In this document: positions 23,903 to 24,874 of the stretch, in pieces
Layout: each line of letters begins with the position of its first letter
How positions within the stretch are numbered: the stretch's first letter is position 1
From: a virus
DNA length: 51,506 nt
Reading direction: 5' to 3' (one strand)
UHGV virus genome: UHGV-0335272
Notes under the pieces: model-generated
The model's input: only the letters and a program-made list of their open reading frames with translations
The model's database searches: none
Told to the model about the DNA's origin: nothing
Translations under genes and position numbers: made by a program

Positions 23903-24430
23903 TTAATTCAGCCTCGGACACGTCCAAGAATCGCTATCAGGATTTGGTGAAAAAACCTTCAAGCACCCCTCTCGTGGGGCCTTGCCATCATCTGTCATAG
24001 GAACATTTTCCTTATCAAGTTTCACGATGAGGTCTCCTCCGGGAACATCGGTTTTATCGAGAAAAACAGCCTGGCAGGCTGATTTAGATATTTTCACTTC
24101 GTGGACATTATTTGATATGAACAAAAAACAATTATGGCCAGAGGCTATGTAGTCACTAGGAATATTATTCTCGTCTTTGATATGAAATTGAACGGTTGTC
24201 ACCGGGCGCTCGCGATCCTCGGATACTTCGAATTTTTCAAAGCTGCTCGCATACTTATCTAAACCGGGGAGCTGTTGACGAATAAAAGGTAATTCGCGCT
24301 TTACGACCGGGTTGTCAGTTTCAACGCTGAAAACCGAGTGCTCCTTAGCTGGGGTGGACGCATCAGCAGGATCGGCGTTATCTCCACACCCAGCCAAGGC
24401 AAATACCAACGTTAAAAACAATTTGCGCAT
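23903..24430 (-). CDS. Prophage lipoprotein, co-oriented downstream of the repressor gene
   Basis: MRKLFLTLVFALAGC signal peptide with lipobox; AAGGA RBS; AT-rich gene. Confidence 0.7.
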   Translation of the reverse strand: MRKLFLTLVFALAGCGDNADPADASTPAKEHSVFSVETDNPVVKRELPFIRQQLPGLDKYASSFEKFEVSEDRERPVTTVQFHIKDENNIPSDYIASGHNCFLFISNNVHEVKISKSACQAVFLDKTDVPGGDLIVKLDKENVPMTDDGKAPREGCLKVFSPNPDSDSWTCPRLN

Positions 24431-24463
24431 AGTCATATCCTTAATGTTCTTAATGGGAACAAA

Positions 24464-24874
24464 TTAGCCCACATTTTTTAAATTATTTAGCTGTGCGGAC
24501 AGCTCCTGAATCTGTTTTTCCATCTCAATCACACGCTGTTTTTCTTCAGCGCCTCGCATGAGGTCTCGTCGAACCTCAGGGTCTAACTGATTTAATAGTT
24601 CAAGCATTTTAAGATCCGCTTGACTGAAATTTTGAATGGCTGGTTCAACCTTCGATACCTCCTCCTCTCCCTTACCTGTGAGTAACCAGTCAAGAGAGAC
24701 ACCTCTCTCCTCAGCAATGTTTATGCAAATTGAATAAGGCACAGAATCTCGCTTTCTCCAACTGGCTAAAGTCTGTCTGTTAACGTTCAGCACCCGAGCC
24801 AACTCACTGTCGCTATCAACATTAAACAGTGACATGAGTCGCAGTAGCACTGCATCAACGGCCTTTTTATTCAT
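24464..24874 (-). CDS. Phage repressor (CI-like HTH protein)
   Basis: 136 aa; N-terminal HTH-like segment (ELARVLNVNRQTLASWRKRDSVPYS), C-terminal coiled coil; divergent from ner-like gene. Confidence 0.7.
   Translation of the reverse strand: MNKKAVDAVLLRLMSLFNVDSDSELARVLNVNRQTLASWRKRDSVPYSICINIAEERGVSLDWLLTGKGEEEVSKVEPAIQNFSQADLKMLELLNQLDPEVRRDLMRGAEEKQRVIEMEKQIQELSAQLNNLKNVG

Follow-up and report, generated by a model that had tools for sequence, protein, structure and literature searches.

What does a lipoprotein gene do when it stands directly behind the repressor gene of a prophage? The question is raised by positions 23,903 to 24,874 of the UHGV virus genome UHGV-0335272, a stretch of 51,506 nucleotides that is called the window here. 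The prophage, which is identified from the surrounding genes as a BcepMu-like (Bcepmuvirus-type) transposable element, carries in this place a CI-type repressor gene followed by a lipoprotein gene, for which the original prediction had suggested superinfection exclusion or receptor masking. Judged by its sequence, the lipoprotein is a member of an uncharacterised, phage-associated extracytoplasmic domain family, termed the ‘PGLDKY’ family. That it serves as a lysogen-expressed periplasmic exclusion factor, which would block the entry of phage DNA, is the favoured reading and is given an even chance of being correct, on the strength of sequence and of analogy with known systems.

The lipoprotein and its domain family

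The lipoprotein gene, known from the open reading frame (ORF) list and from its homologues, occupies positions 23903..24436 on the minus strand, stop codon included. It encodes 177 amino acids from the first ATG (24436) and 175 from the second (24430). A ribosome-binding site, AAGGA, can be read at 24438..24442 (minus strand), 7 nt ahead of the second ATG, and because this AAGGA-N7-ATG spacing is kept in relatives (alignment of 11 junctions), ATG 24430 is the likelier start and 175 residues, the length given originally, probably the true one. The ratio of nonsynonymous to synonymous substitution rates (dN/dS) is 0.10–0.20, two to three times the 0.03–0.09 of the dam, tnpA and B genes, and indicates purifying selection on a real gene. 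A chance ORF is ruled out by this ratio and by conservation, which extends to 34 homologues and 47 syntenic loci.

The ORF begins MTMRKLFLTLVFALAGC, in which a positively charged n-region is followed by a hydrophobic core and the lipobox L-A-G-C. This signal peptide (24386..24436, minus strand) contains the string LTLVFALAGC noted originally, and the lipobox cysteine, Cys17, is invariant in 19 of 19 aligned close homologues. Under the Lol-avoidance rule, Gly at position +2 after the lipid cysteine predicts sorting to the outer membrane; since the +2 residue is Gly, the window lipoprotein is predicted to be sorted there.

Three further segments follow on the minus strand. Residues 18–32 (24341..24385) form a low-complexity tether rich in acidic residues, Pro and Ala, which has a low predicted local distance difference test score (pLDDT) and is variable in the alignment. 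The core extracytoplasmic domain, residues ~33–140 (24017..24340), equals the C-terminal half of the PHROG family phrog_10002, whose C-terminal part it matches with an E value of 6.1e-13, and carries the motifs LPxIRxx(L/C)PGLDKY, IPxxYxxxGHxCF and VKIxKxxC. The C-terminal tail, residues 141–177 (23906..24016), contains the pair C158 and C173 within the pattern PPRxGCLxVFxP...WxCP, and a similar C-terminal Cys pair was read in the distant members P0060 and P0069. Natural variants of ~143–146 residues, encoded in loci L006 (6001-6432) and L027 (6001-6441), lack this Cys-pair tail, and their homology to the window breaks at 23859/23896-24008.

In the AlphaFold2 (AF2) model, for which 19 homologues were used, pLDDT averages 82 and the predicted template modelling score (pTM) is 0.70. 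Residues 1–30, comprising the signal peptide and the tether, lie below 50, while the mature domain lies above 90. The modelled fold is of the α+β type, with two N-terminal helices packed on a β-sheet and a further helix. Of the 189 family sequences aligned, 180 have cysteines 103 and 121; the cysteines at positions 56 and 125 co-occur (both in 118 sequences, neither in 48, only one in 12), and Cys158 and Cys173 co-occur in the tail. This pairing pattern fits disulfides formed in an oxidising compartment.

Scans of Pfam (E <= 0.01), of NCBIfam and of the PADLOC models of known anti-phage defence systems (E <= 0.1) assigned the lipoprotein to no family, a profile search against the sequences of the PDB returned nothing below E 0.4, and fold searches of the PDB and BFVD with the model gave no significant match. 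Structure prediction and fold search, which the original prediction had recommended, yielded a confidently modelled domain with no significant PDB or BFVD counterpart, and its remark that the protein does not resemble the small known examples is borne out, since neither the fold searches nor the family scans showed a resemblance to any known exclusion protein.

A word-indexed search of a 5.8-billion-protein collection found the 34 homologues mentioned above, none of them informatively named and all of them from Enterobacterales wherever the source names an organism; the contig index has no entry for the exact window protein. When 1.84 billion cluster representatives were searched exhaustively with a profile, 183 proteins came back at E <= 1e-3, most of them of ~140 residues and 69 of them below E 1e-10; in the 146 representatives that were scanned, no Pfam domain covers the core. 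The window protein joins this family both by profile match and by the motifs PGLxKY, IPxxYxxxGHxC and KxxC. The family is found in Pseudomonas chlororaphis, Xenorhabdus, Serratia, Pantoea and environmental metagenomes, and it sits in phages or other integrated elements wherever the context is readable.

Scans of genomes and of IMG/VR gave 47 loci, which are BcepMu-like wherever flanking DNA is available. The homologue in BcepMu-like loci always takes the same slot, on the repressor strand between the divergent early operon and the dam and lysis genes, and five distant members (~25% identity) keep this slot in other BcepMu-like phages. A helix-turn-helix (HTH) repressor lies upstream of the homologue in the loci inspected, confirmed by Pfam as HTH in 8 of the 10 tested; its type varies and may be the same CI type, a second type or one of several Xre types. 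In locus L061 (3031-3949) a family member with a zinc ribbon and a transmembrane (TM) helix follows, 14 nt downstream, the HTH repressor of a P2-like prophage recognized by Ogr_Delta, GpD, GpU and GpE, and the link to a repressor is therefore not confined to transposable phages. Another member is encoded alone, on the opposite strand, next to a terminase gene. A detectable member is present in only 2 of 50,697 deposited phage genomes, and BcepMu itself has none among gp17–gp20.

The anchors of the domain were sorted with a rough rule-based classification of 150 representatives: 68 have a lipobox, 25 carry a signal or anchor at the N-terminus, 36 contain an internal TM helix, 14 are unclear and 7 are fragments. 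The 36 internal-TM representatives carry a cytoplasmic N-terminal part, and a zinc ribbon is found at the N-terminus of four representatives. A lipobox, a signal peptide or a TM helix stands upstream of the domain in 129 of the 150. Because the domain appears able to work from either membrane, these sequences imply that it must act in the periplasm. Masking of a receptor on the cell surface, which the original prediction had offered as one possibility, is disfavoured because relatives anchored in the inner membrane share the domain, about one quarter of the representatives holding it on an inner-membrane helix.

Two relatives, P0047 and P0203, which are 76% identical to each other, link the domain to a known exclusion protein. 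In both it is fused to two Ltp repeats (PF07553, E 5.5e-28), and the fused proteins match PHROG ‘superinfection exclusion’ families at 1.7e-42 and 2.7e-30. The gene for P0203 lies at one end of an integrated element and has an HTH regulator as its neighbour. Many Gram-negative Ltp proteins, moreover, use the same zinc-ribbon and TM anchor as members of the family.

The repressor operon as an exchangeable cassette

The repressor gene lies where it was first placed, at 24464..24874 on the minus strand, and encodes a CI-type prophage repressor of 136 residues with an N-terminal HTH domain and a C-terminal coiled-coil-like tail. Its match to PF07022 (Phage_CI_repr) has an E value of 4.8e-19 and 68.9 bits against a cutoff of 22, and it also matches several PHROG ‘transcriptional repressor’ families. 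It is divergent from the early transposition operon, the first gene of which, in the ner/cro position (24958..25188, plus strand), encodes a small HTH protein that matches phrog_8503 at E 2.6e-35 and, weakly, HTH_35; this gene belongs to the swappable immunity cassette. A repeat search of the 83-bp region between the repressor and ner genes found three operator-like 17-bp repeats at 24867-24883, 24896-24912 and 24919-24935, with start-to-start spacings of 29 and 23 bp. Of these, the first two fit the palindrome TTATTCA-N4-GAATAA well and the third is degenerate; together they have the appearance of a classical operator array.

The lipoprotein gene follows the repressor gene on the same strand, as had been noted. 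The distance, which had been put at 34 bp, needs a trivial correction, since the repressor stop codon is separated from the first ATG by 27 nt and from the second by 33 nt. The gene is AT-rich, as also noted at the outset: its G+C content (GC) is 0.451, that of the repressor gene 0.438 and that of the whole prophage 0.563, and at third codon positions (GC3) the values are 0.45 and 0.43 for the two genes as against 0.67–0.71 for dam, tnpA and the SLT gene. Of the traits by which morons are recognized, deviant composition and a terminator are present; the scan found no promoter of its own, and the composition of the repressor gene is deviant as well.

No RNA structure was detected in the repressor–lipoprotein gap (z +0.38). 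A consensus promoter scan of 23700-25300 found no sigma-70 site, and the gap contains no terminator-like site; a weak promoter candidate, matching in 8 of 12 positions, was read by eye at 24510-24482. Directly behind the lipoprotein gene, between it and the convergent dam gene, lies a 16-bp GC-rich hairpin (23865..23900) of -31 kcal/mol (z -7.25), which none of 200 shuffled sequences equalled in folding and which is a likely terminator and edge of the immunity cassette. Transcription of the repressor and lipoprotein genes together from the repressor promoter is the simplest reading, because the gap is unstructured and holds no promoter- or terminator-like site, the hairpin follows the lipoprotein gene and the two genes share their composition. 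The earlier impression of one transcription unit agrees with the unstructured gap, with the hairpin and with the conservation of this layout across dozens of phages.

The gap also contains a conserved 17-nt element, TGTTCCCATTAAGAACA (24445..24461, minus strand), with the layout TGTTC-CCATTAA-GAACA. The pattern TGTTCYYATTAAGAACA, which has 15 fixed bases and two pyrimidine positions, is matched without mismatch in 21 related loci, once per phage and always between the repressor and lipoprotein genes; in the window it likewise occurs once. The element is kept even where the flanking proteins are only 50–65% identical and is more conserved than the surrounding coding DNA. An RNA hairpin, a protein-binding site and a recombination linker are candidates for its nature. 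A scan of 21900-25600 with Rfam gave sub-threshold noise only.

Comparison with close relatives indicates that the operon is exchanged as a unit. In three loci (L037, L038 and L046) the B, transposase, IclR-type, Dam and holin proteins are 93–98% identical to those of the window, while the lipoprotein is only 36–39% identical and the repressor is a different one. Homology in the backbone DNA is lost at the stop codon of dam (23848-23852) and found again from 25184, where the iclR-like gene starts, and from these limits the swapped unit is read as the terminator, the lipoprotein gene, the repressor gene, the operators and ner. The family thereby marks the exchangeable immunity cassette of BcepMu-like phages. 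In KP12-type phages only the DNA-binding half of the repressor and the operators are replaced (24583-24927) and the lipoprotein is kept, so the function of the lipoprotein is independent of repressor specificity.

Superinfection exclusion and other possible functions

As an exclusion factor, the lipoprotein would act as follows. Being encoded by the second cistron of the repressor (immunity) operon, it would be made in the lysogen together with the repressor. The product would be exported and lipid-modified at Cys17, and the inner leaflet of the outer membrane would be its most likely destination; from there a flexible tether of ~15 residues would hold the compact, disulfide-stabilised α+β domain in the periplasm. 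For the domain, the most likely binding partner is something that traverses the periplasm in the course of infection, either a tail or tape-measure-type protein ejected by the incoming phage or a component of the host envelope on which that phage depends. The phage would still adsorb, but binding would keep its DNA out, in a manner similar to Ltp or T4 Sp and not to a mask of a surface receptor. The original proposal of superinfection exclusion thus receives support of an indirect kind, from the position in a swappable cassette, the two Ltp-repeat fusions and the Ltp-like anchors.

Several points weigh against an exclusion function. The link to Ltp rests on two closely related fusions among 183 representatives, and profile and fold searches detected no similarity of the domain to any known exclusion protein. 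That phages of Enterobacterales, of Pseudomonas and of unassigned hosts so widely keep the one domain in the one slot could instead mean a role in the phage’s own biology. The coupling or fusion to a membrane protein with a cytoplasmic domain, seen in many relatives, suggests that two parts work as one machine, and a gene for the second part is absent from the window. Finally, the operon shows no consensus sigma-70 promoter in the scanned region (23700-25300).

The partner points to the first of the alternatives, in which the domain and a membrane protein of the repressor operon similar to BcepMu gp18 form a trans-envelope module, with the domain as its periplasmic arm. Such a module would sense an envelope signal and act in the cytoplasm, where it would control lysogeny or induction or cause abortive infection in the manner of RexAB; the stand-alone lipoprotein of the window would be a reduced or re-purposed version. 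In 9 of the 16 inspected loci, the repressor and the family member are separated by a membrane protein with a cytoplasmic N-terminal domain and a TM helix, which usually ends 5–38 nt before the family member or overlaps it; other loci show 4-nt overlaps. In L005 the membrane protein is a fused paralogue of 324 residues, separated from the family member by a 159-nt gap; this gene (4870-5844) joins a gp18-like cytoplasmic domain and a TM helix to the lipoprotein core domain. P0053, P0083, P0115 and P0138, proteins of 311–329 residues with the core domain at the C-terminus, are fusion forms of the same gp18-like kind, and phrog_10002 is itself this fusion, its N-terminal half being matched by the partner at 2.2e-24 and its C-terminal half by the lipoprotein.

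The partner, in turn, carries at its N-terminus a motif that also stands in the C-terminal tail of the Xre-type repressor next to it. The motif, Q-x-F-H-G-x-V-G-Q...G-x-I-x-N, recurs in this way at the start of the gp18-like protein encoded by the next gene in L031 (4876-5995), L042 (4979-5992), L060 (5910-6919) and L055, which is BcepMu (9226-10421), and suggests a shared recognition or assembly motif. A repressor, a membrane protein mimicking the repressor tail and a periplasmic domain may together link an event at the envelope, such as phage attack or envelope stress, to the lysis–lysogeny decision or to abortive infection. Against this, the window and its closest relatives have no gene for the membrane partner and the lipoprotein follows the repressor directly; alone it cannot signal across the inner membrane. 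The window repressor, moreover, belongs to another class, without the tail motif, and the cytoplasmic domain of the partner has no recognisable function. It is considered improbable that the domain is the periplasmic end of an undescribed trans-envelope module of the immunity operon, present in BcepMu-like and some P2-like phages, with the window protein as its free-standing sensor or effector head, of a fold not seen in solved structures.

Of about the same low probability is a role in lysogenic conversion, in which the lipoprotein would raise the fitness of the host, for example through serum or stress resistance like lambda Bor, and take no part in conflicts between phages. The position, which implies expression in the lysogen, the lipoprotein signal, the deviant base composition typical of morons and the occurrence in Salmonella, E. 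coli, Citrobacter and Klebsiella-associated records are all compatible with such a factor. The family, however, tracks phage lineage and not host niche and is always found in the same phage slot, it has no Pfam-A match and no match to a functionally annotated PHROG, and its inner-membrane-anchored variants cannot act at the cell surface.

A role in the lytic cycle is very unlikely. The protein could temper the signal-anchor-release (SAR)-type transglycosylase endolysin, aid lysis, or, like T5 Llp, protect progeny from re-adsorption to debris, and in many relatives the gene does lie just upstream of the holin and endolysin genes on the same strand; lipoproteins also occur in lysis cassettes as o-spanins. 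In the window, however, the convergent dam gene and the strong hairpin separate it from the lysis genes, and an Rz-like spanin region of the prophage itself lies beside the endolysin gene; in the P2-like prophage the family member adjoins the repressor, away from the lysis genes. The family is found with SLT, Phage_lysis and Amidase_2 endolysins alike and tracks no single enzyme. An endolysin inhibitor is ruled out by this occurrence with three different endolysin types.

Periplasmic exclusion remains the favoured reading. If it is true, the family would add an unstudied layer to the resistance that prophages confer, of relevance for phage therapy and for the prediction of host range, and exclusion would be exerted through a domain with no Pfam relative and no significant match to a solved structure. 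BcepMu-like transposable prophages occur in genomes of Salmonella, E. coli, Citrobacter, Serratia, Pantoea, Xenorhabdus and Pseudomonas and in Klebsiella-associated ones. Whichever function applies, the gene fusions offer a testable entry into the role of post-repressor membrane proteins of the BcepMu gp18 type.

The prophage and its relation to known systems

The gene order of the prophage is the same as in BcepMu. Its rve transposase matches phrog_310 at E 1.2e-145, and the position of Mu B is occupied by a gene whose homologues match AAA_22. The gene set further includes a holin with two or three TM helices, an SLT endolysin with an Rz-like ORF beside it (~20262-20900), a D12-class Dam methylase, an IclR-type HTH gene, a DUF3102 gene, DUF3164, GemA and Mor. 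Among deposited phages, Klebsiella phage KP12 and Escherichia phage Phi06_2974 B come closest; their DNA is 83% identical to the window here, and their lipoprotein is 86% identical.

The dam gene (23082-23852, plus strand) is an orphan of the D12 type, convergent with the lipoprotein gene, and the hairpin is common to both; no restriction partner is evident nearby. A second variable slot of low GC, 22069-22886, lies between the holin and dam genes and holds a gene for a 182-residue protein with two TM helices (22129-22677, minus strand), which matches phrog_11791. Its weak matches to a SLATT-like model and to the PADLOC ‘2TM effector’ model (7e-5 and 6.9e-6) are below the curated cutoffs. BcepMu gp19, in the corresponding position, looks homologous to it by eye.

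The right end of the prophage comes after the Mor gene (32233-32622), within the region 32233-33713, and the next ORF encodes an M20-family peptidase of 297 residues, which may be truncated by the insertion. Farther on, a second tyrosine integrase with an Arm-DNA-binding domain (37180-38469, minus strand) adjoins phoP, and past it a stretch of lower GC (0.43–0.53), from 38.9 to 48 kb, is probably another integrated element. The flanking phoPQ genes are only 78% identical to those of E. coli, and because of this E. coli is ruled out as the host, which by sequence is an enterobacterium of another species.

Among the known exclusion systems, Ltp of the Streptococcus thermophilus phage TP-J34 is a lipoprotein expressed by the prophage that blocks DNA injection via the tape measure protein (PMC3952083). 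Ltp and the window protein are both lipid-anchored extracytoplasmic proteins encoded in the lysogeny module, the latter having a lipobox and being encoded by the second gene of the repressor operon; two relatives of the window protein carry Ltp repeats, and Gram-negative Ltp proteins use the same lipobox or zinc-ribbon and TM anchors. The window protein itself, however, contains no Ltp repeat (no Pfam match at E <= 0.01), and its predicted α+β fold with disulfides is unrelated to Ltp in sequence.

Cor of phi80, N15 and HK022 and Llp of T5 are outer-membrane lipoproteins that inactivate FhuA. They resemble the window protein in being phage-encoded lipoproteins of Gram-negative bacteria and in protecting the envelope, which for the window protein is proposed only. 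Cor and Llp, however, have ~60–80 residues and act on one outer-membrane receptor, while the window protein has 175–177 residues, matches no Pfam family and among PHROGs only phrog_10002, annotated as of unknown function; many of its relatives are anchored in the inner membrane, which does not fit receptor masking. Pfam presumably includes the families of lambda Bor and TraT, and the Pfam-A scan of the lipoprotein, which returned no family, sets both of these aside. An o-spanin of the Rz1 type, a small proline-rich lipoprotein whose gene lies within or beside the i-spanin gene of the lysis cassette, is ruled out by the position in the repressor operon, by size and by the Rz-like gene elsewhere. 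Tested by profile search or by position, the window protein is thus placed outside the Ltp, Cor/Llp, Bor/TraT and spanin families.

T4 excludes superinfecting phage jointly through the membrane protein Imm and the periplasmic protein Sp (spackle), of which Sp acts in the periplasm. This combination recalls the pair of a gp18-like protein and a family member in many BcepMu-like phages. Imm and Sp, however, are products of a lytic phage and not of a repressor operon, the window has no membrane partner, and fold searches of the PDB gave the window protein no significant match to a solved structure.

The Pseudomonas transposable phage Fc02 has exclusion genes (olg1, gene 10) beside the repressor; the exclusion gene is described by its authors as a neighbour of the repressor gene, apparently on the same transcript, and the repressor is transcribed in the lysogen (PMC9936078). 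Fc02 is thus similar in being a transposable phage with an exclusion gene beside the repressor; its gene, however, lies upstream of the repressor and encodes a product of 7.9 kDa, for which homology to the window protein is not expected.

The proteins of phrog_10002 differ from the window protein in their length of ~320 residues and in having a cytoplasmic domain and a TM helix. BcepMu gp18 (phrog_6521, ‘membrane protein’) has the same post-repressor position as the lipoprotein and is related to the partner protein, whereas the domain family of the lipoprotein is missing from BcepMu. A literature search on BcepMu-type phages in connection with lipoproteins, exclusion or Salmonella found no study of the lipoprotein gene. 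An envelope protein co-expressed with a repressor, as proposed here, is a familiar theme; what appears new, and was not found described in the literature, is the domain itself, with a fold that apparently has no match, a constant slot in transposable phages and the proteins to which it is fused.

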